From NCBI GenBank assembly GCA_041390285.1, contig JAWKQD010000002.1, positions 131,205-195,204 of the forward strand: 64,000 bases of DNA. The letters are read 5' to 3'. This DNA comes from Thermodesulfobacteriota bacterium (lineage in GTDB: Bacteria; Desulfobacterota_D; UBA1144; Nemesobacterales; UBA2774). Under the pieces are notes generated by a model that was not told the origin of the DNA, searched no databases, and was given only the letters and a program-made list of their open reading frames with translations. How positions within the stretch are numbered: the stretch's first letter is position 1; each line of letters begins with the position of its first letter. Below are positions 22,970-42,815 of the stretch, one piece after another. The position numbers and the translations under genes are program-made.

Positions 22970-25141
22970 TCAGTTTTTGGTCGTATCCGTGAGGTTGGCC
23001 TGAACCCGCTCGCACTCGGCGTAAATATCCTTCGCGATGCCGAGCATCTTGTTCGCGAGCTCTTCGGTAGGCTCCTCCGCGGCAAGGTCCTTCAGCGTGA
23101 CCGATATATTGAGCCACTTCTGATCGGTCTCGCCCGTCCTGACGAGAAGGTTCTCGAACTCCCACATCGTCTGCTCCGTCGTGAACGGGTCAACGAGCTT
23201 TGTATAAAGCGGTACGTGGGCGCTGTCCGAGCATGCGCGGTAAGACTCCCTTATCGAGGCCGCATAGTCGCTGTGCGACAGAAAAGCCTCGGCCTGCTGG
23301 ATCCGCTTTTCGGCGGTAGCGAAATCGGGCACCTTCTCTTCGACGGTAGCCCCGGCGCACTCGCCCTTCATACCCTTTAAGAGCTCGAACTTCTTGTTCT
23401 CGTGCCCCCAGTCCTCGTAGAAAGTGGGGTCTTCTTCGAAAGATGGAATATCGGTGAACTGCGTTATCTCTTCTTTTAAGCGGTCGCGTCCGAGCCTTTC
23501 CATAACGACGTCGAAATGCTCGTCGCCCTCTCTCTCGTCCCTGTAAAGCTCTATCAGGTGCTTTACGACCTTGGGAGCGTTCCGCGTCGGAACCTTTATT
23601 ATCGATGTCGCAAGGCGCGTCTCGTCTCCGTAAAGCCCGCCGCCGATGAATACCTGCTCGGCCGGGACATTCTTCCCGTCCTTGGTGAGCGAAGCCCCCT
23701 GAAAGCCTATGCTCGCGACGACGTGCTGCGCACACGAATTGGGGCAGCCCGATATCTTTATCCTGAGGTCTTTCGTAAGCTCCTTATACTCGTCAAGGCC
23801 GTTGGTCATCCTGTTCGTGAGTTCCCCGGCAAGTCCCTTGGCCGACGTTATGCCGAGGCGGCACGTGTCCGCGCCCGGGCACGCGACGACGTCCTTGAAC
23901 GTGTCCGCGCCTGTTTCGGCTAGCTCCGCGTCCCTAAGTGCCGCGAACAGCGCTGGGAGCGCTTGCTTCGGCACCCACCTGAAAATAAGGTTCTGGAGTA
24001 TGGTCACCCTGACCTCTGCGCCGGAGAATACGTCTGCAAGGTCCGCGACTATCCTGGCCTTGTCGCTCGTTATGTCGCCCAGGTGTATGCGTATGTTCAC
24101 CATGGCGTAGTCGGGCAAGGCGTGCGGTAGCACGTTCGAATTCTTCCATTCTATAAATTCGGGATCGTTTTCTATACCCTCTGGCGCCTGCGGGATCCGC
24201 CCGGGATCGTAAGGCGGCGGGGTTTCATTTTCGGGTATGTCTTTAAGATAATCGTTCCACGAAGGATCGACCTCTAGAGCGGCCCTTTCTTCCTCGACCC
24301 TCTTTTTAAACTCTTCCCAGCCGAGGGACCTTATTAGGAACTTCATGCGGGCCTTCATCCTGATCTTGCGCTCGCCGTACCTGTCGAAGACTCGTATCAC
24401 GGCGGCCGAAAGCGGCAGCATTTCCTCTACGGGCATGAAGTCGGTCCAGAGCTCGCCAAGCTGGGGCGCTCCTCCGAGTCCGCCGCCTACGTAAACCTGG
24501 AAGCCGCGCTGGAGCTTCCCATCCACCTCTCTCACCCGGGCCCTGAACCCGAGGTCGTGTATCCTGACGCCGGCGTGGTCCACATCCTGGCATCCCTCGA
24601 AGCAAACCTTGAATTTCCTGCCCATGTTCTGGCAGATCGGGTTTCTGAGCATGAAGTTTTTAAAGGCTTCTGCATAGGGCGTCACGTCGAACGAGGAGGT
24701 CGGGGAAACGCCGGCCTGGTGGCAGGCGGTGACGTTCCTGACTGTATTGCCGCAGGCTTCGCGCGTCGTGATGCCGACGTCCGCGAGCTCGCGCATCATG
24801 TTGGGTACGTTTCTGATGGTTATGAAGTAAAGCTGGACGTCCTGACGTGTGGTGAGGTGAATGAATCCGCCGGCGTATTTATCCGCAACGTCCGCAAGAC
24901 GCCTGAACTGTACCGAGCTCATGCCGCCGAACGGGATCTTTATGCGCTGCATCTGTACGCCTTCCTGGCGCTGGGCATATGTGCCGAGCTGAAGACGGAA
25001 TTTCTGAAATTTGATCTCCCCGACAAGGCCCGCCAGGTAATCTTCTATCTTCCCCTGGTAGTCGTCGAGCTCCTCCCTTACAACCTTGGGAAGCCCTTCC
25101 TTGATCTCCCGCATAGACTTCTTCTTTACCTTAACTTCCAT
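22970..25141 (-). CDS. Assimilatory siroheme/[4Fe-4S] sulfite or nitrite reductase (ferredoxin-type, NirA/Sir family) with about 150-aa C-terminal extension
   Basis: 723-aa intact ORF with duplicated NIR_SIR ferredoxin-like and 4Fe-4S halves. Cluster-binding Cys motifs ACPGADTCRLG and ISGCPNSCAQH. Extra helical C-terminal region after ..DWGHENKKFEL. Confidence 0.85.
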   Translation of the reverse strand: MEVKVKKKSMREIKEGLPKVVREELDDYQGKIEDYLAGLVGEIKFQKFRLQLGTYAQRQEGVQMQRIKIPFGGMSSVQFRRLADVADKYAGGFIHLTTRQDVQLYFITIRNVPNMMRELADVGITTREACGNTVRNVTACHQAGVSPTSSFDVTPYAEAFKNFMLRNPICQNMGRKFKVCFEGCQDVDHAGVRIHDLGFRARVREVDGKLQRGFQVYVGGGLGGAPQLGELWTDFMPVEEMLPLSAAVIRVFDRYGERKIRMKARMKFLIRSLGWEEFKKRVEEERAALEVDPSWNDYLKDIPENETPPPYDPGRIPQAPEGIENDPEFIEWKNSNVLPHALPDYAMVNIRIHLGDITSDKARIVADLADVFSGAEVRVTILQNLIFRWVPKQALPALFAALRDAELAETGADTFKDVVACPGADTCRLGITSAKGLAGELTNRMTNGLDEYKELTKDLRIKISGCPNSCAQHVVASIGFQGASLTKDGKNVPAEQVFIGGGLYGDETRLATSIIKVPTRNAPKVVKHLIELYRDEREGDEHFDVVMERLGRDRLKEEITQFTDIPSFEEDPTFYEDWGHENKKFELLKGMKGECAGATVEEKVPDFATAEKRIQQAEAFLSHSDYAASIRESYRACSDSAHVPLYTKLVDPFTTEQTMWEFENLLVRTGETDQKWLNISVTLKDLAAEEPTEELANKMLGIAKDIYAECERVQANLTDTTKN

Positions 25142-27012: not shown

Positions 27013-27315
27013 CACCATATCCTCCGCAGGATAATTATAAATCAGCGGCAGTATTATAAACAGGAATTATTAAGACGATATTAAGGATAAAACACGAACG
27101 CACTACTTGAAGAATGCACTTTCGACCGTCTCCCGTTCCCTTATGACGCACGGCTCGCCGTTCTCTGAAGCACGTCAGGCGGGCGCGGGAATATGAATGT
27201 CCCGGACTGTGGTATGTTGTACGCCCCAACGTTTTTGACCACTAGCCTGTCTCCCGGTCCAAGCGGCGGGAGAGCTCGTTCTCGTTATAATGTCGGTCTG
27301 TAGACACAGCGGCCC

Positions 27316-28328
27316 TTAAACTATCGTCTCTTTCGGCTCGCCTTCAGGGTTGCCAATAAGCTCCACAGTCTGGTGCCGCCAGAACGACGTCGGAAGTAAA
27401 TTCACCCCGCGTCTATCACGACGGCTCGCCTTCCGCCCGGAATTTCCTTCGACGAGACGACAGTAGCGACGAGTCGTGCATCCTACGACGGCGCGTCCGG
27501 GCTCCAAGATCAGTAGCGGCGGCTCTTCGCCTTCGAATCCCGAGAGTAGCGGCCCCGTGACTGCATCGACGTACGGCCCGAAGCGCGCCAACGGACGGGA
27601 ACCCGCCGCCCATATCGATGTATTCGACTCTTATGCCGTGCCGCGCTTCGAGGTCCCTCGCCAGGCGCGCGAGATTTTTCCGCCGCCCTTCGGTAGGCCT
27701 CGGGATCCTTCGGCCATATGAGCTCGATGTCACGTGCGGGAGAGCCCTCCCCTCCGCCCGGCCTGATTATGTAACTCGTCAGGTGTATGTGAAGCCCGGC
27801 GACCCTTATACCGGCGGCCGCGCAATCGAGGGCAGCCTTCTCGGCCTCGCCCGATTCGAGGTTAAACCCGAACCTGTCCGGTAGCTGGTTTATGCCTACG
27901 TCAGTGCTAACCCTTATCCCGGCTGCGACGTCCTGCCCCCTCAGCTGCGATACGTTTCAGCGTTTCGAGCTCGTCCCGGTTATCGACGTTCACGAGCGCG
28001 CCTTCGTCGAGCGCCCTTTCGAGCTCTTCCCTTGTCTTGTAGGGGCCGTTGAATACTATGGAGGTCCCAGGGGCGCCGAGCCTCCGTGCGAGCTCGTATT
28101 CGAACCCGGACGCGACCTCGGCCCACGTCCCGTCCCTGTGTATGACTTCAGGATACCCGGTATGGAGTTCACCTTGTACGAATAGGAGACCGCGACCTTC
28201 GGATAACGGGACGAGAACTCGCCTCGGTGTTTCGAGGTTGCCCGTTATGGTTTCGGCAGAAGCCGCGAACAGCGGCAGGCGTATTTTTCGACAAGCGCGG
28301 CTGCGTCATATCCGGGGGCTTTTCTCAT
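27316..28328 (-). pseudogene. PLP-dependent decarboxylase, Orn/DAP/Arg decarboxylase (fold-type III) family, at least 5 frame changes as sequenced
   Basis: Pieces: MRKAPGYDAAALVEKY(G.PLF), VSYSYKVNSIPGIL (PLP-Lys motif), WAEVASGFEYELARRLGAPGTSIVFNGPYKTREELERALDEGALVNVDN, AGLHIHL, YIDMGGGFPS, LLILEPGRAVVG. Confidence 0.75.
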
Positions 28329-28333
28329 ATCGG

Positions 28334-29286
28334 TTAACAGGATACCGCAGTCACGCCGCCCCGGTATACCTCGACAGGTATTTGAGCCCCGTATCCAGGG
28401 CAGCACGGCGGCTATCCGCTCCCGGCCCTTCGTCCCTGCCGCGTATTCGAAGCCGCGGCGATTACGGCAGCGCTCGATTCGCCGACGAGGAGGCCCTCCG
28501 CCTTACGAGTTCGTCCACGGTCCTCCGCGCATCGTCTCACTCACCTGCAGCACGTCGTCTATGCAGTCAAAATCGACCACGCTCGGGATGAAGTTCTTCC
28601 CTATACCCTCTATATCGAAAGCCGAGGCCTCGCCCAAGACCCTTCGCGGTTATACTTTTGAAACACGGACCCGACTGGCTCGACACCGATTATCCTGACG
28701 TCCCCTTTCATTTCTTTAAGATCGTCCCGATACCGGTTATCGTGCCGCCGGTCCCCATCCCGCAGAGGACGGCGTCCACATCGCCGCTGGTGTCGCGCCA
28801 TATTTCGGGTCCGGTAGTTTTGTAATGCGTTTCCGGATTGAGCTTGTTAAAGTACTGGTTCACGTAGAATGCCCCGCGCTCGCGCGCGATCTTGTGGGCG
28901 ACCTTGTAACAGCTTCTTTCGTCCGACGGCGGGAGCCTTCGGGGTGAGGACCTCCGCGCCGTAGAGCCTTAGCGCCTGGATCTTCTCGGTGCTTATGGAC
29001 TCGGGCAGCGTGAATACGCACTGTATCCCTTCACCGCGCCTACGAGCGCAAGCGCAACGCCCATGTTCCCCGACGTCGCCTCGACTATCGTATCGCCCGG
29101 CTTAAGCGCGCCGCTTCGCTCGGCGTCCTCGACTATATACCTCGCAACCCTGTCCTTGACGCTCCCGCTCGGGTTATAGAACTCGAGCTTCGCGTAGACC
29201 TCGCTTTCGAGCCCCTCCGTAACGCTGTTCAGCCTCACGAGCGGGGTGTTGCCTATAAGGTCGAGTATGCCGGATTTAAGACTCAT
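28334..29286 (-). pseudogene. Cysteine synthase / cystathionine beta-synthase family PLP enzyme (fold-type II), at least 5 frame changes as sequenced
   Basis: ORF 28993-29286 reads IGNTPLVRL..KLEFYNPSGSVKDRVA..ATSGNMGVALA. Later pieces read [71 protein letters not shown]. Start overlaps the upstream stop (ATGA). The 3' end is uncertain (28334 or 28351). Confidence 0.75.
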
Positions 29287-30671
29287 GCCCTCCCCTTTAT
29301 CCGTTCGAGTATGGTTTTCGCGCGGGCCGTTTTCTCCGGGAGAAAAAGTCGATTAGTGCATCCCTGTAAGCGCCGCTTTTTGCCTTCAGCGATCGCCTCG
29401 GGAAGGGCCTCGCGTAGCTTCGTGAACGCCCGGAGGTCCGGCCGCGAGATGTTTAGCCTGACGAACCTCTCGGCCCCAACGTCTCCGAGCCCGTCTCCCG
29501 GATAAACGGCTATACGCCGCTTGAAGAGTGATACCGTAAGCTCCTGCGCCGTGACGCACGTTCCCGAAACGTCTATCACCATCGAAAAGCCGTACCAGTG
29601 GCTGACGGGGATCGACACGCCGTCCGTTCCGGCGACTATTTCTTTTATTAGTGCGAAATTACGTCTGATTATCTCCTGCGACCTTTTGACGTACGAGCGG
29701 TCTTCGAGCGCCGCCAAAGCGCCGTACTGCGCGACGAGGTTCGTGTTGAGACGCGTGAGCGAGGTCTTGGTTATGAGGCAGGCCCTGACGAGTTCGGTGT
29801 TCCCGGCGAGGAAGCCTATCCTCACCCCCGCCATCCCGTAGCCGTGCGAAAGGCTGAACGTGCAGAGCACGTTGTCCGTATTCGTATCTTTATAAAGCGA
29901 CGTCATCGGGTAGTGCCTGGCCTCGGGGTCTATCCGCTGTGTGTCGTGCGTAATGTCGTTGATCACGATAATCCCGCGGCTCGCGGCGAGCTCCGTAAGG
30001 GCGATCAGCTCTTCCTTCGACTGCACCGTGCCGAACGGGTTCAGCGGGTCGCACACTATCAGCACCTTTGTCCGGGGAGTGATGCGGGATTCGACTTCCG
30101 AGGGATCGAGCCTGTACCCGTTCCCCCTTCCGAGCGGTATCCTCACGGGCCGCCCGCCGGCCATGAGTATCGACGATTCGAAGTGAAAGTAGCCCGGGTC
30201 GGTGATTATCACCTCGTCCCCGGGGTTGAGTACGGTCTGGAGAGCGTACGATATCGCAGCCTGGCTGCCCTCCGTGCCTATAACCTCGAACTCTGCGCCA
30301 CGCTCGCGCCCGAACTTCATCTCGGCGCAAGTGTTCCTGAGCGGCGTTATCAGGTCGGGCGAGTACGGGTTCACGTTCTCCGCCACCGTACGCTCGCGCA
30401 TGGCCTTCACAGCACTTTCCGGCGGCCCCGCGTAGCAGGTCATCCAGCCGAAATCGGCCCACTCCTCCTGGTCGAGGTCGATTCGCCCTTCCCTGTACAC
30501 CTCCACCGGGTCGAGCCCAAGTATGCCTATGGCGTCCCTGTAGGTCATGTAATTCCACATGCCGTGATGGCTGTCGATTACCGACCTCACCCTGTCCGAC
30601 AAAACCTTCCCCACGAGCGGCGACTCCTCCTCGCCTCCCGCCCATCCGAGCACAAACCTTTCCTTTTTCAT
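29283..30671 (-). CDS. Class I/II aminotransferase-fold protein lacking the canonical Schiff-base lysine (SLSH instead of SxSK)
   Basis: 462-aa intact ORF with fold-type I pattern (GTEGSQAAISYAL..PGDEVIITDPGY..LIVCDPLNPFG..VINDITHD..FSLSHGYGMAGVRIGF). His codon CAC at 29844-29846 occupies the position normally held by Lys. Confidence 0.7.
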   Translation of the reverse strand: MKKERFVLGWAGGEEESPLVGKVLSDRVRSVIDSHHGMWNYMTYRDAIGILGLDPVEVYREGRIDLDQEEWADFGWMTCYAGPPESAVKAMRERTVAENVNPYSPDLITPLRNTCAEMKFGRERGAEFEVIGTEGSQAAISYALQTVLNPGDEVIITDPGYFHFESSILMAGGRPVRIPLGRGNGYRLDPSEVESRITPRTKVLIVCDPLNPFGTVQSKEELIALTELAASRGIIVINDITHDTQRIDPEARHYPMTSLYKDTNTDNVLCTFSLSHGYGMAGVRIGFLAGNTELVRACLITKTSLTRLNTNLVAQYGALAALEDRSYVKRSQEIIRRNFALIKEIVAGTDGVSIPVSHWYGFSMVIDVSGTCVTAQELTVSLFKRRIAVYPGDGLGDVGAERFVRLNISRPDLRAFTKLREALPEAIAEGKKRRLQGCTNRLFLPEKTARAKTILERIKGRA

Positions 30672-30705
30672 GAATTCCTCTTTGTCGTCATCGTTATAAC
30701 CCTGG

Positions 30706-31554
30706 CTAATTCCTCATGAGGACCACGGCGTATATACCGTACGGGTCCATCCTTACGACAGGATCTCTGAACCCGGCCTCCTCGGCCCAGCCTATGACGA
30801 GGTCTTTGTCGCGAAGGTGCCACACGCACGGCCCCCCGTCCTGATTCACGAGCGTCCGCGCTATGAGCTCGATCTGCTCGTTATAGGTCTGCACGTTGAA
30901 GAGAAGCGCCTCGGGGGCGACTATCTCGCGAAGGTCGGCCAGGTGTTTCTTTACCAGATCGTCGTCATGTATGATGCCGTACAGCCCGGCCTCTATCGCG
31001 AGGTTCGGACGCGCGGGAATAGCGCGGAGGCTTTCGGTGTCGAGGGCGTCCCCGACTTCGAAGCTGACCCTGTCCCTGAGCCCGCTGGCGAGCGCCGTCT
31101 CCCGGCTCTCGGCGAGCGTTTTCTCGCTTATGTCCCTCAGGAGAACCTTCACATTCTCGCCCGCGTCCTTGAGCACCTCGTATATATAATCGGCCCTGCC
31201 GGACGCCAGATCGACAATGAGCGTTTCGTGCCCGGACCGCTCGTTTATGAACCCGGATATCGCGTCTATCTGTATCTGCTTTACGGCGCGGAAGGCCTTG
31301 CACGTGGTCTGATCGAGAAAGGCGGCGTCGAGCCATCTGCCGATAAAAGACTTTCCGTGCGGCACATTTTCATATATGTAATTCATTATCATTCCCGAAT
31401 CGAATCCGTACCGGAATCCGGTATCTATGCCGTCCGAGAGGCGTCCTACGGTCCTCAAAAAAAGCCCGGCGGCGAGATAAAAATATTTCTTCGGGTCGCT
31501 CCCGACGAGGGGCCGCTTAAGCTCCTCGAAGGTGGGTATGCTTTTACGAGACAT
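30706..31554 (-). CDS. Class I SAM-dependent methyltransferase
   Basis: 282-aa intact ORF. Motif I-like LIVDLASGRADY, acidic loop LLRDIS, then VGDALD. Start overlaps the end of the upstream gene. Confidence 0.65.
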   Translation of the reverse strand: MSRKSIPTFEELKRPLVGSDPKKYFYLAAGLFLRTVGRLSDGIDTGFRYGFDSGMIMNYIYENVPHGKSFIGRWLDAAFLDQTTCKAFRAVKQIQIDAISGFINERSGHETLIVDLASGRADYIYEVLKDAGENVKVLLRDISEKTLAESRETALASGLRDRVSFEVGDALDTESLRAIPARPNLAIEAGLYGIIHDDDLVKKHLADLREIVAPEALLFNVQTYNEQIELIARTLVNQDGGPCVWHLRDKDLVIGWAEEAGFRDPVVRMDPYGIYAVVLMRN

Positions 31555-32112
31555 ACCATTTGATCTCCTCGTCTTCCCTGTCGGCGTATATCTCGTCGGC
31601 CACCTTCTTCACATCCTCGGCACGCTTTTTGAGCTCCGGCGTTTTGGCGTTCTCGGCGAAATACTCTTCCAGGTACGCGAGATGCTCTCTCACATCCTTA
31701 TGCACCGCTTCAACTACTCTTCTTACTCTCCGGGTCGGCCGCGCTTTCGTACACATCAAGAAGCGCCGAGAAGTGAATCAGCGACCCCCATGCGTAAGCC
31801 ATGTCATCGAACGTGTCGTCGTAGGCTTCGAGTATGTCGTATATCTTCTGCCCTATGGCGGGAGGCTCATAGGTCTCCGGCGTCTCCCCCGAGCTCGCGT
31901 GCCCTGTCCGAAAAGAGCTTCGCGTGCCGTGCGTTGTCGGCGATTATCCTCGTGGCGACGAGCTTCGTATCGAGGTCTTTTATGGACTTCAACTTCCCTC
32001 CGAAAAGGTCCACCCACGACAGCATGCCGTACGTATGCCTGCTGAACGCGCGGGCTAGGCGCTTCGGATCGGAAAGGACTTCTTTTAACCTGTCGGGATT
32101 CCTTATGCTCAT
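31544..32112 (-). pseudogene. Helical, ferritin-like/four-helix-bundle-type hypothetical protein, 1-2 frame changes as sequenced
   Basis: ORF 31867-32112 (..TRIIADNARHAKLFSDRARELG..), a middle frame (ETYEPPAIGQKIYDILEAYDDTFDDMAYAWGSLIHFSALLDVYE) and ORF 31544-31759 (..VVEAVHKDVREHLAYLEEYF..). E/D-x2-H-type motifs suggest a metal site. The family assignment is tentative. Confidence 0.35.
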
Positions 32113-32131
32113 TCTTTATCCTTTTGCAGTT

Positions 32132-32581
32132 TCAGTACATTTTCTTGAGTATTTCGAGGACCTTTTCGTCGCCCTTCGCGGGGACTTCCCAATCGACCTG
32201 AATAGTCTTCACACCCTGCGCATCGAGGGCCTCCTTGAATATGTCGAGCCCTATGTTTATGACGCGCATCTCCTGCCCGAGGATATCGCTCCCCTTCCCT
32301 GCCTTAGAGGAAGATGCGGTAACCGCCGTTTCCATCTCCGAGAGTACAGAGGCCGCCGCGTCTTCCGAGTCGGCCTCGACGACCATCACGAGGTCGGACC
32401 CCGCCGCCGCATTTATATCGTCCGTCACGAGGCCAGCGTCCTTCAGCGCGAACTTGGCCTTGTCCGTGGCCATCACGGCGACCGCCTTTTTGACCCCTTC
32501 CTTTTCGGACATGCTCTTCGAGATCCGCATGAGCCTGAGGGCGTCCTGGAAGTAATTCTTTTTTATGATGAATTTCAGCAC
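32132..32581 (-). CDS. Stand-alone protein homologous to the FdrA N-terminal domain
   Basis: 149-aa intact ORF. MLKFIIKKNYFQDALRLMRISKSMSEKEGVKKAVAVMATDKAKFALKDAGL aligns with the N-terminus of the fdrA gene in this window (VVKKNHYRDSMKLMQISQKLSGAQGVKNAAAIMATEANLAMLKDAGL). Confidence 0.6.
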   Translation of the reverse strand: MLKFIIKKNYFQDALRLMRISKSMSEKEGVKKAVAVMATDKAKFALKDAGLVTDDINAAAGSDLVMVVEADSEDAAASVLSEMETAVTASSSKAGKGSDILGQEMRVINIGLDIFKEALDAQGVKTIQVDWEVPAKGDEKVLEILKKMY

Positions 32582-32618
32582 TAAATATCTCTCCCGTTTT
32601 CGTGTTTCTACTGCGCCC

Positions 32619-33020
32619 CTATTCGCCCGGCCGTGCGGTCTCGTAGTCCATCGGGCAGGACTGCGATACGGCGTTACTGACGAAGCAGTACCTTTTCGCT
32701 AGCGGCATTATGACTTCGAGGTCGGCTTCGGGAAGTGTGCTTATCACCCTCACGACTATCCTGCTGAACGTGAAATTTTTCGGATCCGTATCTCCGAAGG
32801 CCGTGACCTTCATGTCGCTGACGCTGACTTTCCTGTTCTTCGCTGCGTAAACGAGCGCCATGCAGAAGCACGACGCAATCGACGCTAGGAAGAGCTCGGT
32901 CGGCATCATGCCCGTGTCGTCGCCGCTGTACTGCGGCGGCTCGTCTACGGGGACTTCGAACTGCCGTGCCGTCACCTCCACCTGATACTTCGTCTTCCAG
33001 ACGGCATTTACCTCAAGCAT
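32619..33020 (-). CDS. OsmC/Ohr family protein
   Basis: MLEVNAVWKTKYQVEV...PTELFLASIASCFCMALVYAA...RYCFVSNAV. Start set at the internal ATG at 33020, which overlaps the end of the upstream GT by 8 nt. Confidence 0.75.
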   Translation of the reverse strand: MLEVNAVWKTKYQVEVTARQFEVPVDEPPQYSGDDTGMMPTELFLASIASCFCMALVYAAKNRKVSVSDMKVTAFGDTDPKNFTFSRIVVRVISTLPEADLEVIMPLAKRYCFVSNAVSQSCPMDYETARPGE

Positions 33021-34210
33021 GGCTTCCCGCCCTTTTGATCTTTCCTTCGCTCCTTTCCTCCAATATCGAGCCGTAAAGCTCCGCGTGCCTCTGCGCCGCG
33101 CTCTCCCAGCTATAGAACCTGGCAGTCTCGTCGCCGCTTGCAGCAAGACGCGCCGCCAGCTCCGGGTCCTCCACAACTTCGAGGATGCCGCGCGCGAGTC
33201 CCTTGTAGTCCGAGGGATCGACGAGCACTGCGTTCTCGCCGTTTCTGAGAAATTCCGTCATAGGCGGAATGTTCGACGACACGACCGGCACGCCCGCCGA
33301 CATTGCTTCAAGGAGTACTAGCCCCCAGCCCTCTTTCACGGACGGAAACGCGAACACGTCCGCCGAAGCGTAAAGGAGCGGCATCTTCCCGCCGGCACGT
33401 TCCCGAGCACGATCACGTCCGAATTCTCTTTTAGTCCGAGCCGGGCGAGCTCCGAGAAAAACTCGTGCCTGTATGCCCTGTAATCGAAGAGGGTCTCCCT
33501 CCCCGATGAGCCATACGAGCCTCTCGCCCTGTGCCGCGAGATAGGCCTTCGCGGCATTGTACGCACGAAGCGCGGTTATGGTGTTCTTCCGGGGCTCGAT
33601 GCCTCCGATGCTCAGCATCACCTTCGCCCCCTCGGCTCCGAACTCCTTCTTTGCGGATTCCTTATCCCCGCCCCGGACGGAGCTGTAAGTCCCGTAATCG
33701 ACGCCGTTGTTTATAACCTCGGACTCGAGTGAATATTTCGCTTCGAGCTCCTTTTTCCAGTGCTCGCTCACGGCGATCAGGTAATCAGGCTCCTCGCAGG
33801 CTCTTGTCCTGACATTCGATGAGACACGCCGACGTAAAATCGTCCACGTGGTGAACCGTCCTCACGTAACTGTCTATATGCCCCTTCTCGCGAAGATTAA
33901 GTAGCGCATTCGCCGATATGCAGTCCTCCGCATGGAGGATGTCGTAATCGAGACCCTCCGCCGCGAGGTACGAAGTATATGTATCTATGTAGTCCGTAAT
34001 CTTTTCGTCGATGCCCCAGTACTCTTTCACAGGGCACTGTATCAGCGTATGCGGCACCCCGACCTCCGACGGAAGCCCTTCCCCGTCGAAAGGGCGTAAA
34101 CGTGCACGTCGTGGCCGAGACGCGCAAGGCTCTCTGCCAGATTTATCGTGTGCGTAACGCCGCCCCTGGGCTTCGTCGAATACGTGAGCAGTGCAATCCT
34201 AAGCTGTTTC
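33013..34210 (-). pseudogene. GT4 glycosyltransferase (position reminiscent of the MSMEG_0565-type GT of Nit1C clusters), at least 4 frame changes as sequenced
   Basis: N-terminus MKQLRIALLTYSTKPRGGVTHTINLAESLARLGHDVHVYAL. ORF 33785-34057 (..VHHVDDF..). ORF 33013-33771 with FPSVKEGWGLVLLEAMSAGVPVV. An internal out-of-frame stretch is restored by ORF 33336-33566. Confidence 0.7.
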
Positions 34211-35188
34211 ATCGATCTCCTCTAGCTCTATGCGTGAAATCAAAAACCTCATGCCGTAATATATGCCGACCGCGGTGTCCGAGCCCGACGTCTCGCCCAT
34301 TTTCACGAGCGTCCGGGATGCGGCCGCTACCTCGTCCGGGTTCTTCGAAACGATCGCGTAAACGAGCTCCCGCCGGGGCCGGCGCTTCGCCGCGTGCGGC
34401 TTCGTCCAGGTAGCTCACGCTGTATATGGTGGTCTTGTCCTTCGCCCTTTTTATTATTTCTGTTGCAAATTTATCTATGAACCCGGGAAGCGTGCGGTCC
34501 CTCTCGCAGGAGAGGAGTCCTATACCCCTTTGAGTCCGAATACGAGCCCGGCGAGGAAATCGTCGCACGAGGGCGTAAGCCCCGGGCCCAGCCCGAGTAT
34601 CTGCCCCGCGTTTTCGGCCGCTCCGTTCAGGTCGCCCGAGAAAAGCGCCCACATGAGCCTTTCGATATAAGGCCGCGCCCTCTCCGCGACCGACGGCTTC
34701 TGCTCCTTTAGGAACACATCCATCGGGCCCCTGAGCTCGACGCTTTCGAGGAGTGATACAAGCCCCTCGCGAGAGGGATGCGTATATATCACGTCGCGGA
34801 GCACCCTCATGTTGAGGTTCATTTCCTCGAGCCCTAGCCGCTTTTCAGGGATCGGGCGGCGCGTTCCAGACATCAACTTCCGACAGGTCCACGGCGAAGC
34901 CGCCACGGGCGGCGCGAAGCGCCTCCGGAAGGCTGTTATCTCTTCCCCCTCTACCAGACCTGCCGATTTGAAATCGGTATGTGCGTCGCTGAAAACAGCT
35001 ATAGAGGCGGGGCCGATGTAATCCTTTTCGGTAATAATCTTCACGAGTGTATCTCCTGCGCCCTTCAAATAAACCGCGTGCTCGAAGACGCCCTCAACCA
35101 CCGCTCTTTCACCCTGTTTCAGTATTTCCCCTGCTCTGTATCCCGCCGCCTCGGCTTTAAAGTTAATTCGCTCTTTTGTCTCGCTCAT
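34197..35188 (-). pseudogene. ylbF: DUF2877 family protein (YlbF-like), about 2 frame changes as sequenced
   Basis: ORF 34520-35188 ends in the DUF2877 signature GLGPGLTPSCDDFLAGL. The C-terminal part (..ASRTLVKMGETSGSDTAVGIYYGMRFL..) is in other frames. Stop overlaps the GT start. Confidence 0.7.
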
Positions 35189-35266
35189 AGCTTCTGCGGA
35201 AGGGCTCCGTCAAGCGGCGCGCGCGAGTGTCCCCGCGGCCGAGCCGCTCCCGGCGCTCCCCGTAAT

Positions 35267-35511
35267 TCAATTATATTTCTTCCAGTGGGGCCGCTTTCCG
35301 GGATATGCGCTTAAGAGAATGATCTTCCTCCTGAGGCTCCACGGAACGGCAAGGTAGAGCGGGACGAAAATATTCCTCCAGAAAAGGGGACCGAGGCCCC
35401 TTCGCGGTAAGGTTTCGCGCACGATTCCGGGTACCGCGAAATCATCTGGTCGTCCGCGGCTTCCATAAGATATTTTTCAGCGTTCTCTCTCAGCCAGTGT
35501 CCGAATGCCAT
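35267..35511 (-). pseudogene. Small hypothetical protein, one frame change as sequenced
   Basis: MAFGHWLRENAEKYLMEAADDQMISRYPESCAKPYREGA.., then in another frame ..WRNIFVPLYLAVPWSLRRKIILLSAYPGKRPHWKKYN. No family recognised. Confidence 0.25.
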
Positions 35512-35546
35512 GACCTAACCTCCCGAAGCGTTTCTATGAAACCGCG

Positions 35547-36894
35547 TCAGCCATTCTGCTTAAGTTTCGCGAGACCGGCCTGCGCCGCGAGCGCTATAGG
35601 CTCCATAAGGGCCCCTATCGGCGGCGAGTACACGTTCTCCATCCACGCCAGCTCTTCGAGCTTCACCCCTCGCTTTATGACGAACGCGAGGAAGTCGGCT
35701 CGCTCCTTTATGCCCTCTCCGCCGGACATCTGCGCTCCGAGCACACGGTGCGTGGCCGGGTCGGCTATGAGCTTCACCCTAAGCCTGCTTACGCCGGGGT
35801 AATACCTCGCCCTCGAAATGCCCATCGCGAATGCTACGACGTGCGGTATGCCGAGCGCCTTGTGGAGCGTCTCGCCCATCGATACGCCGCCCACCTGCAC
35901 CTGTCCGCCGACCATGCCCCACGGTATGAAAACCGGGTCGTATGAGCGGTCTTCGCCAGCTGCATTAGCGGCGGCAATGCGGCCCTGCGAATACGCGTGG
36001 CTGCCCGAAAGTCCCTGTATCGGGATGTCGGTAACGCCGTGTACTACCTCGGCGCAGTCGCCGGCAGCGTACGTCCTTGGCGGATGTCCGCATGTGGTCG
36101 TCTACGAGTATTCCGCCCGTCGAGCCTATTTCGAGCCCGGCCGCGCGGGCGAGCCGGTTGTTCGGCTTCTTCGGGAAGGCCACGACGACCGAGTCGCACT
36201 CTATCTCGCCCGATGTCGTGACGACGGATTTAACTTTCCCTCCCTCGCCCTTGAACTCGAGCACCTTCGTCCCGAAATGAAGCTTCGCCCCCATCTCTTC
36301 GAGCGATTCCTTCACGGGCTCCATGATATCCGGGTCGGCGACCTCGGACATTATCCACGCCCCCTCTTCGACGAGGTGCGTTTCGAGCCCCCTGTGCGCG
36401 AGGTTCCCGGTCATCTCGATGCCGAGCGGCGTCGCGCATACGACGACCACCTTCTTTATGGTGTCGAGGAACTTGTCGTACTCCATCGCGCGCCGTATGT
36501 TCTTCACGTAATGAACGCCTTCGAGGTCGATTCCGGGAATCTCCTGTATGTCGTACTCGAAGCCGGTCGCGATTATGAGCCTGTCCCATCCGTAAGACTC
36601 CGTCCCCGCGCTTATCGTGCGGTTGGGAATATCTATGTTTGTAACAGTAGTCCTGAGCTTTAGGTCTATGCCTATCTTCGCGTAATGCTCGGACGTCTGG
36701 AGGAAGAGATTCTCGAAGCTCGGAATCTCCCGCCCATGAACGAACGGTATGCCGCACGGGCTGTATGCGACGTCCTCGAATTCGGAAAAGAGTGTCACGG
36801 AAGCGTCCGGGGCCAGGGATTTCGAAGTCGAAGCTGCCGAAATCCCGCCGGCGCCGCCGCCTATTATCACTATTCGCAGTTTATCTTGAGCCAT
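35547..36894 (-). pseudogene. FAD-dependent pyridine nucleotide-disulfide oxidoreductase (CoA-disulfide reductase / NADH oxidase type), two frame changes as sequenced
   Basis: LRIVIIGGGAGGISAAS (FAD GxGxxG), single redox Cys AYSPCGIPF, second Rossmann VVVVCATPLGIEMTG. ..DVYAAGDCAEV in an intermediate frame. Dimerisation domain in ORF 35547-35915. Confidence 0.8.
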
Positions 36895-36981
36895 ATATTC
36901 TACCTTTTAATTTTTTGTCAGCCCGGCGCGCCGCCCCGGCTCCCGCCGGCCCCCCTGATAGAGGAGCCGGCCGACTGGGGT

Positions 36982-38109
36982 TCAGCTAAGCCTGACTGGT
37001 TTTACGAATTTCTTGAACTTGACGTTCCGGGCAAGCGCCCTCTCAAAATCGGGCAGAACCGAACACTCGCCGCAGCTCACGCACCCCGCGATACTGCTCT
37101 TGGACGCGCTGCCGTACCTGGCGAGTATCTTCGCCGCCTCGGTGTAAACGTATGACATGATCTCCGGCTTCGGAGGCTTTATGTCCTCCATCGGCGTGCC
37201 CGCAACCGGCCTGAAAGGCACGATGAACGGATACACCCCGATCTCGGCGCATAGCTCCGTGCCGTCGAGTATCGTCTTTAGCCTCTCGCCGAGGCCGACG
37301 AGCACGTACGTGCTCACCTGCCACCTGCCGAATACCCGGACGCCTTCCTTCCACGTTTCTATATATTTATCGAGCCCTATCCTCGCCTTCCCCGGGGTCA
37401 CACTTTTGAAAACCTCGGGGTCGAAAGTCTCGATGTGAACGCCGAGAGAATCCACCCCGGCGTCCTTCAGACGGCCGAGCCACGTTAGATCCTCGGGCGG
37501 GATAATCTGAAGCTGTATCGGGACGCCCGTCTCCTTTTTCACCTCGGAGCAAATCTCCGCGTACTTCCGGAGCGCCTTCTCTTCGTCGGGCGCCACCCCG
37601 GAGGTGAAAACGACGTTCGTTATCCCGTCGAGCTCCTTCGCCAGCTTTATAGTCTCGACCAGGCTCTTCGCGTTCTTGAACCCGACCGTGCTCCTGTCTT
37701 TCAGTGTGAGCTCTATACCGCAGAACTGACACCTCCTGTCGTCGTTCCAGAAATCGCAGGTCTGGAGCAGGGTCGTCGCGAAAGTGGTCGGACAGTGAAG
37801 GAGCCCGATACGCTGCATCGGTATCCCCACCGACGTCTCGTGCCCGTGAAACTTCGCGCTGCCCATAAGCTCTACCTGGACGAGCGCGACGCCGTCCTTG
37901 AATATCCAGTACTCGTTGTTTATCTGATCGAGATGATAGGGGGACGATGCTACAAAGTCGCCTACGACGGGAACATTCGCTTCACCGTCGGGGAGTATCT
38001 TAAGGTGAATCCCTCCCGTCGGCCCGGCCCCGCCGCTCCTGACGTCCTTCGTGTCAGGAATCCTGAGACCTAAACTCTGCAGCTCTACTTTCAGGGTTGT
38101 TGAGTCCAT
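36982..38109 (-). CDS. Radical-SAM-like enzyme with non-canonical Cys motif (candidate MSMEG_0568-type)
   Basis: 375-aa intact ORF. About 100-aa N-terminal domain, then CDFWNDDRRCQFC (CX8CX2C rather than CX3CX2C), a TIM-barrel-like pattern (VVFTSGV, LGVHIETF), and C-terminal CVSCGEC. Confidence 0.6.
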   Translation of the reverse strand: MDSTTLKVELQSLGLRIPDTKDVRSGGAGPTGGIHLKILPDGEANVPVVGDFVASSPYHLDQINNEYWIFKDGVALVQVELMGSAKFHGHETSVGIPMQRIGLLHCPTTFATTLLQTCDFWNDDRRCQFCGIELTLKDRSTVGFKNAKSLVETIKLAKELDGITNVVFTSGVAPDEEKALRKYAEICSEVKKETGVPIQLQIIPPEDLTWLGRLKDAGVDSLGVHIETFDPEVFKSVTPGKARIGLDKYIETWKEGVRVFGRWQVSTYVLVGLGERLKTILDGTELCAEIGVYPFIVPFRPVAGTPMEDIKPPKPEIMSYVYTEAAKILARYGSASKSSIAGCVSCGECSVLPDFERALARNVKFKKFVKPVRLS

Positions 38110-38231
38110 TTCAGCCCCCTTGGCACTTGGTTTATACGACGATCCGCAGCTTATCCGCCAGATAAACTACGAAGCGAATCCCACTACCGACTGCCCCTCC
38201 GATACCCTTATAACTAAGGATACTAGGAGTA

Positions 38232-38723
38232 TTAGACAGTCCAAGTGTTAAAGATCATCGCTCCAGCTCTGTGGTGCTCGATCACGATATCGAGGATGTC
38301 GGTCGGATGAATCGGCACAACCCCTTCGAGGAAGCTCGATTCATTCTGTCCGAGAAGCGCTGCAGCCGAGAACCTGCATGCGAGCACTTTAATGCCCTCG
38401 CTCATCATCCTGTTCACGAGATTCGGGTAGAGCTGAATCCCTGCGCCGTAACCGTCGTCGCCCACGTTCGGCCATCCCCTGTATACGGGTATGCCGGAAG
38501 CAGGTCCGTAGAAAAGTACGGTCGTGTCGTAACCCTTCTTCTTGGTCCTGATCGCGGTCAGCATGTTGATGCCCGCGACGGAGCCTTCGTAGGGTACCGA
38601 GTGGATGAGGAAAAGGGCCTTTTCTCCCTCTCTGGCTTTATGGTCGGGATAAAGCTTCTCCTCGTAATTAACTAATGCTTTGCCCTTCTCGGGTCTATCC
38701 GCTTTAACTCTGTCTACAGCCAT
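38232..38723 (-). CDS. DsrE-like-fold hypothetical protein (candidate MSMEG_0572/Sll0783-type small protein)
   Basis: 163-aa intact ORF with a strong AGGAGG RBS. ALFLIHSVPYEG..TVLFYGPASG..KVLACRFSAAALLG resembles DsrE/DsrF-like proteins. The family call rests on neighbourhood context. Confidence 0.4.
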   Translation of the reverse strand: MAVDRVKADRPEKGKALVNYEEKLYPDHKAREGEKALFLIHSVPYEGSVAGINMLTAIRTKKKGYDTTVLFYGPASGIPVYRGWPNVGDDGYGAGIQLYPNLVNRMMSEGIKVLACRFSAAALLGQNESSFLEGVVPIHPTDILDIVIEHHRAGAMIFNTWTV

Positions 38724-38978
38724 GACGAATTACCTCCTGAAGTTTATTTGGTTTCCCATACCCGGCGGACTCGCCGGATACTCTTTATTTTCGACGGAAA
38801 CTAAAGCCAAATCCTCGTTTCGGTAAAGCTTCTTATGGTTGTTGCCGACAGCCGAAAGCCAGGCCCCGGACAGGTTAAAAAAGGCCCGATCCTGAAAACC
38901 CCTCACATTCCCCATGATATTACAATCGGCCTTTGAATTCAATGTAATAGGCTCCTGTCCATCTCGTTCATACGGGGC

Positions 38979-39917
38979 TCAGTGGACTATCTCCGTCCCC
39001 TCCTCTCCGTTTATCGCCCGATCTATATTTTCGAGCGAGGTTATGATCGTTTTCTTTCCGCCGGCTCTCAGGAAATTGATGGACGCCTCTATCTTCGGCC
39101 CCATGCTTCCAGGCGGGAAGTGCCCTTCGGCGAAATAGCGCTCGGCCTCGGCCAGCGTCATGCGCGAGATCATCTTCTGATCCGGCTTTCCGAAATTTAT
39201 CGCCACCTTGTCCACGGGCGTTACCAGCATCAATATCTCCGCGTTCACGAGGCTCGCCAGCCTCTGGGCGGCAAAGTCCTTGTCTATGACGGCGGCCACG
39301 CCCTTCAGCCCGCCGCGCGCATCCCTCACCACCGGGATGCCTCCGCCGCCGCACGCTATGACGACGTAATTGTCGTTCGCCATCCTCGATATCTCGTTCT
39401 TTTCGACTATATCCACAGGCCTCGGCGATGGCACGACCCTTCTGTACCCCCTCCCGGAATCCTCCTTCATCACCCAGCCTTCCTTTTCCTGAAGCTCCTT
39501 CATCTCCGCTTCGGTGAAGAATGGCCCGATGAACTTGGTCGGGTTCTTGAAGGCCGGGTCGTCTTCCGAAACGACGACCTGCGTAATGAAGGCGGCGACG
39601 GACCTGTCCATCTTCTTCTGGACGAATATGTTCCTGAGCCGCTGCGCTATCATGTACCCTATCTGCCCCTGCGTCATGGCGTTACACACGTCAAGCGGCA
39701 TGGGGGGGATCTCCGTCGAAAGAGATTCCTGCTGCATCAGGAAGTTCCCGACCTGCGGTCCGTTCCCGTGCGTGATAATGATCTTGTACCCCATGTCGAA
39801 GAGGCCGATTATCCTTCTGCACATCTCATCGGTTTTGAGTATCTGCTCGGAGTAAGTGCTCTTTCCCGTGTGGCTCATAAGAGCATTGCCTCCGAACGCC
39901 ACTACAGCCGCTTTCAT
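38979..39917 (-). CDS. arcC: Carbamate kinase
   Basis: 312-aa intact ORF: VVAFGGNAL, IITHGNGPQVG, YRRVVPSPRP, VIACGGGGIPV, GVAAVIDKDF, FPPGSMGPKIEA. ATGA overlap with the fdrA stop. Confidence 0.95.
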   Translation of the reverse strand: MKAAVVAFGGNALMSHTGKSTYSEQILKTDEMCRRIIGLFDMGYKIIITHGNGPQVGNFLMQQESLSTEIPPMPLDVCNAMTQGQIGYMIAQRLRNIFVQKKMDRSVAAFITQVVVSEDDPAFKNPTKFIGPFFTEAEMKELQEKEGWVMKEDSGRGYRRVVPSPRPVDIVEKNEISRMANDNYVVIACGGGGIPVVRDARGGLKGVAAVIDKDFAAQRLASLVNAEILMLVTPVDKVAINFGKPDQKMISRMTLAEAERYFAEGHFPPGSMGPKIEASINFLRAGGKKTIITSLENIDRAINGEEGTEIVH

Positions 39918-41484
39918 ATATTCTCTCCCTTGTCTCTTTTCACTGCAGGCGTTTTACCTCCGGAGGCGATGTATCCCGCCGCCCTCGACGCGAGGGCGTT
40001 CGTCGGGAATATGAGCACGCCTTCCGATTCCAGCTTTTTTTCCTGCTCGCCGAGCCCCTGCGGGTCCTTTGCCGTCCCGCAAACGTGCGCGACGAACGCG
40101 AGCTTCCGCCCCTTCTTGGCAGCGGCCTTTTTCGCTTCCTTTATCGCGGGCAGTATGTCCCCCGCGGGGTCCGGGCTCGCCACGTATCCGAGGACTATGT
40201 CGAGCAGTATGACGCCGACCTCGGCGTGCGAGGCCTCGCGGACGAGCCTTTCGTTACGTAGCTGCGCGTCTATCATCGGATGAGGACGCCCTACCGTGAA
40301 CTCCTCTTCCCCTAGGTCGAGGCACGTGTGGCGGACGCTCTTCCCCGAATCCTTCAGCTTGTATTCTTTATTTAACGGAGCGTTCGAATAAACGCCGCCG
40401 AGTATCGGTTCGAGCACCTTCTGCGCTTCGTAGCAGAGCGTCCCGCCGGAGAATAATCCCCGGAGGTACTTCTGCCCCGGGGCCAGGGACTTCACGAGCT
40501 TGTCCGCACTCTTCTTCCAGCCGTCTCCGCCCTTGATACCCTCGAGGTCGCCGCCCGCGATCTTTATCGCGCCTATGGCGGCGTCTTCCAGGGTAGACGA
40601 GAAAAAGGTCTTCCCGTTCCCGTGATTGACGTCGCTCCCGAGGAAGCATATGACGGCCGGCTTCCGCGAAGCCTCTATCGCGCTCAATATCTTTTCCGCG
40701 ACGTTCTTCGAGGGCGGCTTCGAAACGAGGACCAGAAACTCCGTTTTGTCGTCCGCTTCGAGGAGCTTTAAGGCTTCGAGTGTCATTATCCCGCCCACGT
40801 CTTCAGAGAGGTCCCGGCCCCCGACGCCTATGGCGTGCGATATACCGACGCCGGAGTTGTTTATGAGGCAGGAGACCTCCTGGAGCCCCGTTCCGGACGC
40901 GGCGACCATGCCGACCGGCCCCCTGTCGAGCACATTCGCGAACCCAAGGCCGACGCCGTTCACTATGGCCGTGCCGCACCCCGGGCCCATTACTAAAAGG
41001 CCTCTCTCTCTCGCTCTCTCCTTTAACTCTATCTCTCTTCACCTTATTCGTAAGATTGTCGCTGAAAAGAAACGTATGAAGCCCCCGTATCTATGGCCTT
41101 TCCGACCCGGGCTTTGCGAACTTGCCCGCAGATACCGCGACCAGATTAGCTCCCGGGAAGCGCGCCGTACGCCGAGCCTGCTCTTGTACTTCTTCGTCGC
41201 TCCGCCCCCGCGCCGGGCGGCGCGAGGAGCGAATCGAGCATGTTTTCACGGCCTCCTCGGCCTTCTCCCCGAATCGGCCTTCACGGCCACTATAAGATCG
41301 TCTGCCGTCGCCTCGGGCATACCTTCAAGGAGGCCCGCATCTTTAAGCATCGCAAGGTTGGCCTCGGTTCGCCATGATGGCGGCGGCGTTCTTCACGCCT
41401 GAGCGCCCGAAAGCTTCTGGCTTATCTGCATCAGCTTCATCGAATCCCGATAATGATTTTTTTAACAACGTGTAAAATCGCCAT
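39914..41484 (-). pseudogene. fdrA: FdrA (succinyl-CoA-synthetase-alpha-like acyl-CoA synthetase family). The 3' 1077 bp is intact; the 5' 500 bp has several frame changes.
   Basis: ORF 39914-40990 reads MGPGCGTAIVNGVGLGFAN..GMVAASGTGLQEV..GISHAIGVGGRDL. Upstream pieces read MAILHVVKKNHYRDSMKLMQISQKLSGAQGVKNAAAIMATEANLAMLKDAGLL, ..DLIVAVKADS.., ..GLHVFLFSDN...EIELKERARERGLLV. Confidence 0.85.
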
Positions 41485-41511
41485 TCTATATAAATCCTTT
41501 TATTCCCTATC

Positions 41512-42794: not shown

Positions 42795-42815
42795 CGCTGT
42801 CTTTTTCAGTCCTGT

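Follow-up and report, generated by a model that had tools for sequence, protein, structure and literature searches.

Results

Organization and conservation of a 19-gene operon

The stretch of DNA analyzed here in full, referred to as the window, covers 64,000 nt of a Thermodesulfobacteriota bacterium (assembly GCA_041390285.1, contig JAWKQD010000002.1, positions 131,205-195,204). It carries a minus-strand run of 19 genes (27103-44857; 17.75 kb) that, judged by its marker families, comprises a Nit1C/gpr-type nitrogen-starvation cluster followed by seven further genes. These last genes were found not to be a stand-alone pathway but to close one 19-gene operon as its accessory tail at the 3′ end. 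From 5′ to 3′ the tail encodes: (i) an OsmC/Ohr-family protein (32619-33020; PF02566, 2.3e-19); (ii) a stand-alone AllF (FdrA) N-terminal-domain protein of 149 aa, termed AllF_N (32132-32581); (iii) a ferritin/heme-oxygenase-like putative di-metal protein of 188 aa (31544-32112), assigned by AlphaFold2 (AF2) and Foldseek; (iv) an S-adenosylmethionine (SAM)-dependent methyltransferase-fold protein of 282 aa (30706-31554; PF12147, E 5.6e-53); (v) a class I aminotransferase-fold protein of 462 aa (29283-30671; PF00155, 1.1e-34) with a histidine, His276, at the Schiff-base lysine site; (vi) a CysK/CBS-family (PALP) β-replacement enzyme of 314 aa (28351-29286; PF00291, 170.9 bits); and (vii) an ornithine/diaminopimelate-type pyridoxal 5′-phosphate (PLP) decarboxylase of about 411 aa (27103-28328; PF02784 in frame translation). 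The FdrA-N-like label that AllF_N had received in the first-pass annotation was upheld by PF27530 on its orthologues and by NF004760 over residues 6-91. The genes are tightly packed, with a 19-nt gap between AllF_N and the ferritin-like gene, an 11-nt overlap of the latter with the methyltransferase gene, a 34-nt gap before the aminotransferase-fold gene and an ATGA overlap between this gene and the PALP gene.

The core upstream of the tail begins with a MSMEG_0567/Sll0786-family GNAT (44398-44857; TIGR04045, 76.4 against a cut-off of 68.45 in the window frame translation) and continues with a frameshifted sll0787-family AIR-synthase-like gene (43400-44400), an XRE-HTH/cupin regulator (42822-43400; HTH_3 and Cupin_2 on orthologues), an AllG (DUF1116) homologue (41518-42810; frameshifted and placed by tblastn mapping, with PF06545 on the L078 and L079 orthologues), an AllF/FdrA homologue (39914-41440, 5′ end approximate; frameshifted, NF004760 at 369 bits in frame translation) and a carbamate kinase (38979-39917), the orthologue of which passes the TIGR00746 (ArcC) equivalog cut-off (379 against 358.25). 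These are followed by the MSMEG_0572/Sll0783 DsrE-like protein, ORF1 of Nit1C (38232-38723; TIGR04044, 174.6 against 109.85 on the L001 orthologue), a MSMEG_0568-family radical SAM protein encoded by an intact open reading frame (ORF) of 375 aa (36982-38109; TIGR04043, 329.2 against 303.7 on the orthologue), a frameshifted flavoprotein resembling coenzyme A (CoA)-disulfide reductase (approximately 35550-36894; PF07992 and PF02852, with TIGR03385 at 288.7 against 578.8), a conserved small ORF of 82-95 aa that stands where Nit1C clusters have ORF6 (35270-35510; tblastn matches in 29 loci and the window), an AllH (DUF2877) homologue (approximately 34205-35190; tblastn mapping, PF11392 on orthologues) and a frameshifted MSMEG_0565-family GT4 glycosyltransferase (33013-34212; TIGR04047, 407.5 against 259.85 on the L001 orthologue). 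All gaps within 27103-44857 are shorter than 260 nt, and every stretch was assigned to a gene. The minus-strand order, the families and the coupling of the OsmC-to-decarboxylase run, as first proposed, were borne out by domain matches and junction sequences. The initial estimate of about 17.5 kb and about 20 genes in one orientation stood as to the co-directional run and was refined to the length and gene number given above.

The gene order was next compared among relatives. One genome per species was scanned, which yielded 71 loci, and these were searched by tblastn with the proteins of L001, a locus that, like L008, represents a complete 3.1-Mb chromosome at 71% identity. In L001/L008 the genes are intact and follow the exact order of the window from AllF to the decarboxylase (15 genes), after which an opposite-strand porin gene is found. 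About 20 of the 71 loci were found to have the full L001 gene order, which is kept down to 60% identity, and the full 19-gene order with intact genes is present in L078 and L079. For 26 clade loci, 10 kb of sequence was available on the upstream side of the aminotransferase-fold gene, and 22 of them were found to carry the Nit1C/All genes there. Recurrence of one gene order in these 22 relatives is far beyond chance, and the Nit1C-type operon variant is conserved across a bacterial class-level clade. The aminotransferase-fold protein itself has hundreds of relatives at 65-95% identity in metagenome-assembled genomes labeled Dadabacteria, Thermodesulfobacteriota and ‘Deltaproteobacteria’; an exact-sequence look-up of the window protein returned no match. 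Consensus scans for promoters and terminators gave background counts only, with none in the junction gaps. Thus, the view that the block forms a unit with the FdrA/carbamate kinase cluster is upheld by co-directionality, translational coupling and the order in 22 of 26 relatives: synteny is strongly conserved, and the terminator and promoter scans gave nothing above background that would set the block apart from 33-45 kb.

Assembly errors and corrected gene ends

Fragmented ORFs occur throughout positions 1-64000 of the window. For frame repair, an Illumina contig (L002, ENA ERZ795015; 96.2% identical) was aligned over 26.5-34.5 kb, and corrected coordinates were obtained by mapping the L002 genes onto the window. 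Over this interval 39 indels were found relative to L002, a density of about 5 per kb that makes many genes look frameshifted; most are 1-nt deletions, often in homopolymer runs of G or A. Three tail genes, encoding the ferritin-like, CysK-like and decarboxylase proteins, are not intact ORFs in the window and account for 2, 9 and 16 indel events, respectively. These 27 events, the clustering of 26 of the 39 indels within 27.1-29.0 kb and the 6% nucleotide divergence of the decarboxylase gene from L002 could be taken to mean that, in this organism, the operon ends in two or three pseudogenes undergoing decay. However, comparison of all eight genes with L002 gave ratios of nonsynonymous to synonymous differences (pN/pS) of 0.03-0.15, and the values for the CysK-like (0.03) and decarboxylase (0.12) genes are like those of intact neighbors. 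Moreover, indels are found also across the GT4, AllF and AllG genes, and the orthologues of the broken genes are intact in Illumina assemblies. Gene decay is thus highly improbable and was rejected on pN/pS: because these ratios are low in the broken genes as well, the frameshifts are, by this sequence comparison, consensus errors of a noisy assembly. The window looks like an unpolished long-read assembly.

The mapping also changed the 3′ junction of the tail. The first-pass annotation had ended the CysK-like gene at 28334, abutting or overlapping the decarboxylase gene, and had ended the latter at 27316. The two families held, but the coordinates and the abutment did not, as the CysK-like gene ends at 28351, with a 22-nt gap before the decarboxylase start at 28328, and the decarboxylase gene ends at 27103. 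Two side observations came from the same alignment. The aminotransferase-fold gene contains two compensating indel pairs (29333-29386 and 29596-29603) that leave its ORF open, the first of which recodes about 17 codons near the C-terminus compared with all orthologues. In addition, the AllF_N gene differs from L002 at only 1 of 450 nt (pS 0.010, with 0.10-0.17 in the flanking genes), possibly reflecting recent recombination or nucleotide-level constraint; the pS of the methyltransferase gene is also low (0.056).

The core is a Nit1C/gpr variant with AllFGH in place of the nitrilase

Four marker models of the Nit1C cluster, which was described by Podar 2005 (PMC1199592), score above their NCBIfam cut-offs (TIGR04043, TIGR04044, TIGR04045 and TIGR04047). 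For a fifth, TIGR04049 (sll0787; cut-off 321.3), the window gene gives only two partial matches (97 and 108 bits), each in another frame, owing to frameshifts, and its orthologues carry AIRS and AIRS_C domains. ORF1, in Nit1C clusters a DsrE/YchN-like protein of 160-163 aa, is in the window 88% identical to its 163-aa L001 orthologue, with 84-97% identity across the clade. Known versions of the cluster include sll0783-0787 of Synechocystis, nitA-H of Pseudomonas and MSMEG_0565-0572 of M. smegmatis, the last being named gpr, induced by GlnR and conferring peroxide resistance (PMC6039565). The window operon has in common with them ORF1 and the radical SAM, GNAT and GT4 genes, the last of which occurs in some Nit1C clusters, and probably the AIR-synthase-like gene, and it has a small ORF and a flavoprotein in equivalent positions. 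It differs in the following points. There is no Nit6803-type nitrilase: no NCBIfam match to this (sll0784) type was obtained in 39.8-45.2 kb, and none is present in the Pfam lists of L001, L078 and L079. The flavoprotein is CoA-disulfide-reductase-like and not of the MSMEG_0569 type, as CoA-disulfide reductase is its best model and TIGR04046 is not among the 25 matches listed; the small ORF, compared with the MSMEG_0570-type small protein, had no NCBIfam match. AllG, AllF and carbamate kinase genes precede ORF1, and the small ORF and GT4 are separated by AllH. Finally, the seven-gene tail is an addition not found in the Nit1C literature searched. These assignments identify the operon as a Dadabacteria/Thermodesulfobacteriota variant of the Nit1C/gpr cluster in which the nitrilase is absent and AllF/G/H with carbamate kinase are present.

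In E. coli, AllFGH constitutes the oxamic transcarbamylase, which works with the carbamate kinase AllK (PMC11326118) and is characterized by phosphorolysis of oxalurate in the setting of allantoin catabolism. Homologues of all three subunits (PF27530, PF02629, PF00549, PF06545 and PF11392 on orthologues) and of the kinase occur in the window. In contrast to E. coli, the set lies inside a Nit1C-type cluster without allantoin genes, the subunit genes are not adjacent, and a stand-alone AllF_N protein is added.

Divergent from the operon, an Amidohydro_2 protein is encoded at 45528-46382 on the plus strand (PF04909, 65 bits). Its orthologues (61-82% identical; 61% between the window and L074) lie inside the cluster, adjoining ORF1, in L074, L078, L079 and L042. 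A gene for a zinc-ribbon protein (45106-45486, plus strand) directly precedes the Amidohydro_2 gene. On the other side, 2 kb downstream of the operon and on the same strand, a 723-aa nitrite/sulfite reductase (NIR_SIR) is encoded at 22970-25141; it was considered as a cluster member and dropped as probably not part of the operon, being kept only in the three nearest relatives. No tRNA genes, and no Rfam families at the gathering threshold, were detected in the 64-kb window.

A histidine replaces the catalytic lysine in the aminotransferase-fold protein

Among the ‘three PLP-fold enzymes’ of the first-pass annotation, the PLP lysine is retained by only two, the decarboxylase and the CysK-like enzyme, and is absent from the aminotransferase-fold protein. 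When this protein is aligned to the P. horikoshii aminotransferase structures 1DJU/1GD9, His276 (LSH) stands opposite the Schiff-base lysine (FSK) of the class I S-x-S-K motif, and the tyrosine of DxxY is likewise replaced by His. Other cofactor-binding residues (N211, D239, S275 and R284) and R405 are kept, as are the residues for phosphate and carboxylate binding. The change is a property of a subfamily: LSHG[YF]G was found in 54 of 55 loci (39-100% identity), with Ser in the remaining one, in Dadabacteria, Chloroflexota, Elusimicrobiota and Omnitrophota, and outgroup aminotransferases of the same scan keep FSK. The protein scores below all NCBIfam cut-offs (PRK06225, 181 against 351; GntC, 164 against 415; archaeal AspAT, 134.6 against 550); it is closest to aspartate and aromatic aminotransferases (AspAT/AroAT, about 1e-30), and it has an 80-residue N-terminal extension.

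To our knowledge, the only precedent for a Lys-to-His change of this kind is provided by sugar 3-dehydratases. In ColD, E1 (AscC) and SpnQ, which depend on pyridoxamine 5′-phosphate (PMP) and share the fold-type I scaffold, the cofactor is held non-covalently and the His acts as acid/base (PMC8987622). Those enzymes, however, are DegT/DnrJ/EryC1 family members with NDP-4-keto sugars as substrates, whereas the window protein is a class I (PF00155) member.

The neighbors of the Lys-less gene outside the clade include sulfonate-type genes. In Chloroflexota it is followed by a gene for a SsuD-like alkanesulfonate monooxygenase (TIGR03565, 346 and 336 against a cut-off of 518, far above the next model) and then by a LysA-like decarboxylase gene. 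In Omnitrophota (L051:7102-12897) it has as neighbors three B12-binding radical SAM paralogues and a TauC/SsuC/SsuA-type (sulfonate/taurine) ATP-binding cassette (ABC) transporter.

Other proteins of the tail

The PF12147 methyltransferase gene always lies directly upstream of the aminotransferase-fold gene, including in six loci with the pair alone. The protein has no sequence relative in the PDB, PF12147 was not mentioned in the literature searched, and a single-sequence model (predicted local distance difference test [pLDDT] score of 41) was discarded. For the 188-aa protein, AF2 gave a model with pLDDT 90.6, and Foldseek matched this to CADD (8va9), Sden_3740 (3dde), TenA (1yaf) and BesC (7twa) with query TM-scores (TMq) of 0.65-0.75 and an E-value of only 3.5e-3. 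Weak, sub-cut-off Pfam matches were to MiaE_2 (15 of 26 members), Ferritin and Ald_deCOase (ADO), and eight residues are invariant in the family (H26, D35, D59, H63, E95, H113, D139 and H143), which is tiny, with 62 cluster representatives among 1.84e9 proteins matching the profile. The predicted helical bundle and the conserved His and Asp/Glu residues resemble those of ferritin-/heme-oxygenase-like di-iron oxidases (MiaE, ADO, CADD and BesC), but the protein falls under all curated profile cut-offs and its candidate ligands form D-x3-H rather than E-x2-H. ‘Ferritin-like’ is thus likely the correct label, and the model is consistent with a putative di-metal oxidase.

The remaining two PLP proteins were compared with NCBIfam equivalog cut-offs, with scores taken on intact orthologues. 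The CysK-like protein keeps the PF00291 superfamily fold and the catalytic Lys, with SVKDR, TSGNMG and GTGGT motifs intact. It scored below cut-off with every model considered: CBS (349.8; cut-off 510.25), PRK10717 (335.7; 387), CapA cysteate synthase (331.5; 600), cysKM (323.2; 344.15), cysK (315.5; 350.95) and SbnA (234; 349.95, E 2e-69). Its CapA score is about equal to its CysK score. The best PDB match was 9k2p (3e-82), for which no associated paper was traced, followed by CBS and O-acetylserine sulfhydrylase (OASS). Eight modules that are complete in other respects lack this gene. The decarboxylase orthologue also scored below cut-off with LysA (TIGR01048, 195.6; 297.9) and FslC (189; 500), and the DokD and NspC models match as well. 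The YSYKVN, HIHLTS, DMGGGF, EPGR and GPLC motifs are present, and its best PDB match is the N-citrylornithine decarboxylase FslC (7kh2, 1e-43).

Modularity of the tail and the genes that take its place

Fusion of core and tail is the commonest form among the loci; however, the parts also occur separately, so that three nested units can be told apart. The OsmC-to-decarboxylase tail was found without nearby core genes in L013, L014, L016, L020, L021 and L032, and the PF12147 and aminotransferase-fold pair alone in L018, L024, L030, L031, L033 and L038. In L011 only the 188-aa protein, PF12147, aminotransferase-fold and decarboxylase genes are present, with no OsmC and no AllF_N. In L079 a 4-kb opposite-strand insertion (14069-17655; MazE antitoxin, RmuC and MaoC-like genes) lies exactly between GT4 and OsmC. 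OsmC therefore belongs to the separable tail.

Three xcb-type loci were reached through relatives of ORF1 at 70% (L074/L075) and 43% (L076) identity, and in the first two the position of the tail was found to be taken by other genes. Each gene of the L074 core has its orthologue in window-type cores (ORF1, 70-80% identity; Amidohydro_2, 77-82%; radical SAM, 72-75%; flavoprotein, 69-75%; AllG/AllF/carbamate kinase, 51-59%; GT4, 48-51%; AllF_N, 46-50%), and it is accompanied by a sigma-54 activator. AllF_N is thus present in the L074/L075 clusters, and directly after it lie, in place of the tail, genes of the XcbA family (450; cut-off 150), ComA/XcbB phosphosulfolactate synthase (301; 280), XcbC (668; 575) and XcbD, of which only the start is covered before the locus ends (176 on the first 150 aa; cut-off 600). 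This operon spans L074:16675-20489 and L075:16583-20397. XcbA-E form the bacterial coenzyme M pathway of Xanthobacter autotrophicus (PMC9457059). L076 has XcbD-like, XcbA-family and ComA-like genes together with OsmC. The tblastn searches with the L074 proteins detected no xcb genes in the window, in the Dadabacteria-clade loci or in any of the loci whose tail includes the PF12147 and aminotransferase-fold genes (MT20-AT loci), and no report of coenzyme M genes in a Nit1C/AllFGH-type context was found in the literature. Both routes include a PLP step and have a disulfide-reductase-family flavoprotein in their context, but the tail of the window is built from enzyme families that have no relation to Xcb, and the analogy proposed is one of function only.

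A second slot, after ORF1, is interchangeable for C-N hydrolases: it holds a nitrilase in classical Nit1C clusters, the two nitrile hydratase genes (alpha and beta), immediately following ORF1, in L076 (10593-12207) and Amidohydro_2 in L074. The Nit1C/gpr identity of the cluster, the missing catalytic Lys, the place of OsmC in the tail and the coenzyme M genes in its slot all go beyond the first-pass annotation.

Discussion

The functional proposals that follow draw on family membership, conserved residues and gene neighborhood. A specialized amino-acid or amine pathway, as first suggested for the block, remains the best general reading of the tail. Within it, we tentatively favor the possibility that the tail makes a small organosulfur amine or sulfonate for use by the core, near coenzyme M, taurine or cysteate chemistry, because xcb genes fill the slot in orthologous cores and because the Lys-less protein has sulfonate genes as neighbors. 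The CoA-disulfide-reductase-like flavoprotein, the DsrE-like protein and OsmC are thiol/sulfur proteins of the operon that also count for this proposal, as does the CapA score of the CysK-like protein, which is about as good as its CysK score. The tail would then fill the role that xcbABCD has in the sister clusters. In such a scheme the CysK/CBS-like enzyme would combine a sulfur nucleophile (sulfite, sulfide or a thiol) with an aminoacrylate derived from serine by way of O-acetyl- or O-phosphoserine, and the decarboxylase would remove the α-carboxylate to give an amine. The methyltransferase may then methylate, and the di-metal protein oxidize in an O2-dependent step, the product. The Lys-less protein could hold PMP/PLP non-covalently, as ColD and E1 do, and carry out an interconversion or elimination at a keto/amino position of a sulfonated substrate. 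A further-reaching version, which we consider unlikely, is that the tail constitutes a new route, non-orthologous to Xcb/Com, to a coenzyme M-like or entirely new organosulfur cofactor, built around a PMP-type Lys-less enzyme, a PF12147 SAM enzyme and an orphan di-metal oxidase.

Several observations weigh against the supply of an organosulfur compound. The link to sulfur is made through neighborhood and sub-cut-off scores (SsuD-like, 346 of 518; CapA, 331 of 600; TauC/SaoP). Only three xcb-type loci were seen, two of them nearly identical, and the mutual exclusivity of the two gene sets is therefore weakly sampled. The absence of the CysK-like gene from 8 modules means that it is not essential to the tail, and neither a XcbA-like reductase nor a thiolation enzyme was found in the tail. 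We know of no coenzyme M or taurine route in which the methyltransferase or the di-metal protein has a role. Furthermore, the AllFGH and carbamate kinase set is catabolic in E. coli (PMC11326118), and the induction of Nit1C by nitrogen starvation also suits scavenging.

Catabolic scavenging is indeed the main rival explanation, although we regard it as rather doubtful. In this case the cell would import an amino-sulfonate such as cysteate or taurine, or an unusual amino acid such as an N-methylated or diamino compound, for breakdown by the tail, such that decarboxylation and PMP/PLP-dependent deamination or elimination free nitrogen and/or sulfite in nitrogen starvation. The products would be passed on to AllFGH and carbamate kinase, which would yield NH3, CO2 and ATP. 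Consistent with this, Nit1C/gpr clusters are induced by nitrogen starvation (PMC6039565, PMC1199592), AllFGH with AllK is found beside biuret/triuret degradation genes in nitrifiers as well as being catabolic in E. coli, homologues of the Lys-less protein adjoin a SsuD-like desulfonating monooxygenase and a sulfonate-type ABC importer, and C-N hydrolases occupy the slot after ORF1. Yet the SAM methyltransferase, GT4, radical SAM, GNAT and CysK-type β-replacement enzymes are of a kind usual in biosynthesis, no transporter is encoded in the window operon (a major facilitator superfamily [MFS] gene occurs only in L078), and the equivalent slot of L074 is filled by a biosynthetic coenzyme M operon.

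Sulfur need not be involved at all if the tail is a branch of amino acid, diamine or polyamine metabolism, in which the CysK-like enzyme would make a diamino- or β-substituted alanine in the manner of SbnA, the decarboxylase would act as SbnH, FslC or NspC, PF12147 would methylate or transfer the aminocarboxypropyl group of SAM, and the nitrogen-rich amine would be carbamoylated or glycosylated by the core. FslC is the best solved relative of the decarboxylase, with LysA, DokD and NspC models matching as well, the SbnA model does match the CysK-like protein, and carbamate kinase with the transcarbamylase-type AllFGH needs an amine or amide partner. However, the SbnA score is far below those of the CBS, CysK and CapA models (316-350) and below its cut-off of 350, the Lys-less protein has sulfonate and not polyamine genes as neighbors, and no SbnB/ornithine cyclodeaminase, NRPS-independent siderophore (NIS) synthetase, nonribosomal peptide synthetase (NRPS) or carboxynorspermidine dehydrogenase was detected in about 45 loci; on balance this branch appears improbable. 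The same scores and missing partner genes speak against the diaminopropionate siderophore analogy that had been drawn for the block: SbnA and SbnH of staphyloferrin B, like FslC of rhizoferrin, belong to the same two PLP superfamilies as the window enzymes, but the window lacks their partners, and the CysK-like gene is itself missing from 8 modules. Domain families of the tail are also those of housekeeping enzymes, and one could suppose that cysK, lysA and aspC merely lie downstream of the cluster. This is contradicted, and hardly credible, as the scores are sub-equivalog (cysK, 315.5 of 351; lysA, 195.6 of 297.9; archaeal AspAT, 134.6 of 550), in agreement with the earlier expectation that these are not ordinary orthologues, the aminotransferase-fold protein is without its catalytic Lys, start and stop codons overlap, and the order is kept down to 60% identity. 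A bacillithiol/mycothiol-type thiol, built on the GT4, GNAT and disulfide reductase genes, is a further possible product that was considered early on.

Returning to the organosulfur proposal, its bearing lies with a widespread and strongly nitrogen-starvation-induced group of clusters. Nit1C/gpr clusters have been linked to cyanide assimilation, polyhydroxybutyrate (PHB) accumulation and peroxide resistance, yet no chemistry for them was reported in the literature found, from the 2005 description onward. Likewise, the literature searched on Nit1C, sll0783, the MSMEG markers, PF12147 and Dadabacteria held no description of the AllFGH-type variant, the tail module or the Lys-less class I subfamily, which spans phyla with His in place of the catalytic Lys. 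The exchange of the nitrilase slot with AllFGH and carbamate kinase, nitrile hydratase or Amidohydro_2 points to C-N nitrogen release as the common end step, and the wiring of orthologous cores to either coenzyme M genes or the window tail suggests that the core needs a small organosulfur co-substrate. If the tail does prove to be a new organosulfur cofactor route, Nit1C-type clusters would be cofactor-dependent machines that mobilize nitrogen from C-N compounds, and this would provide a first mechanistic handle on them.

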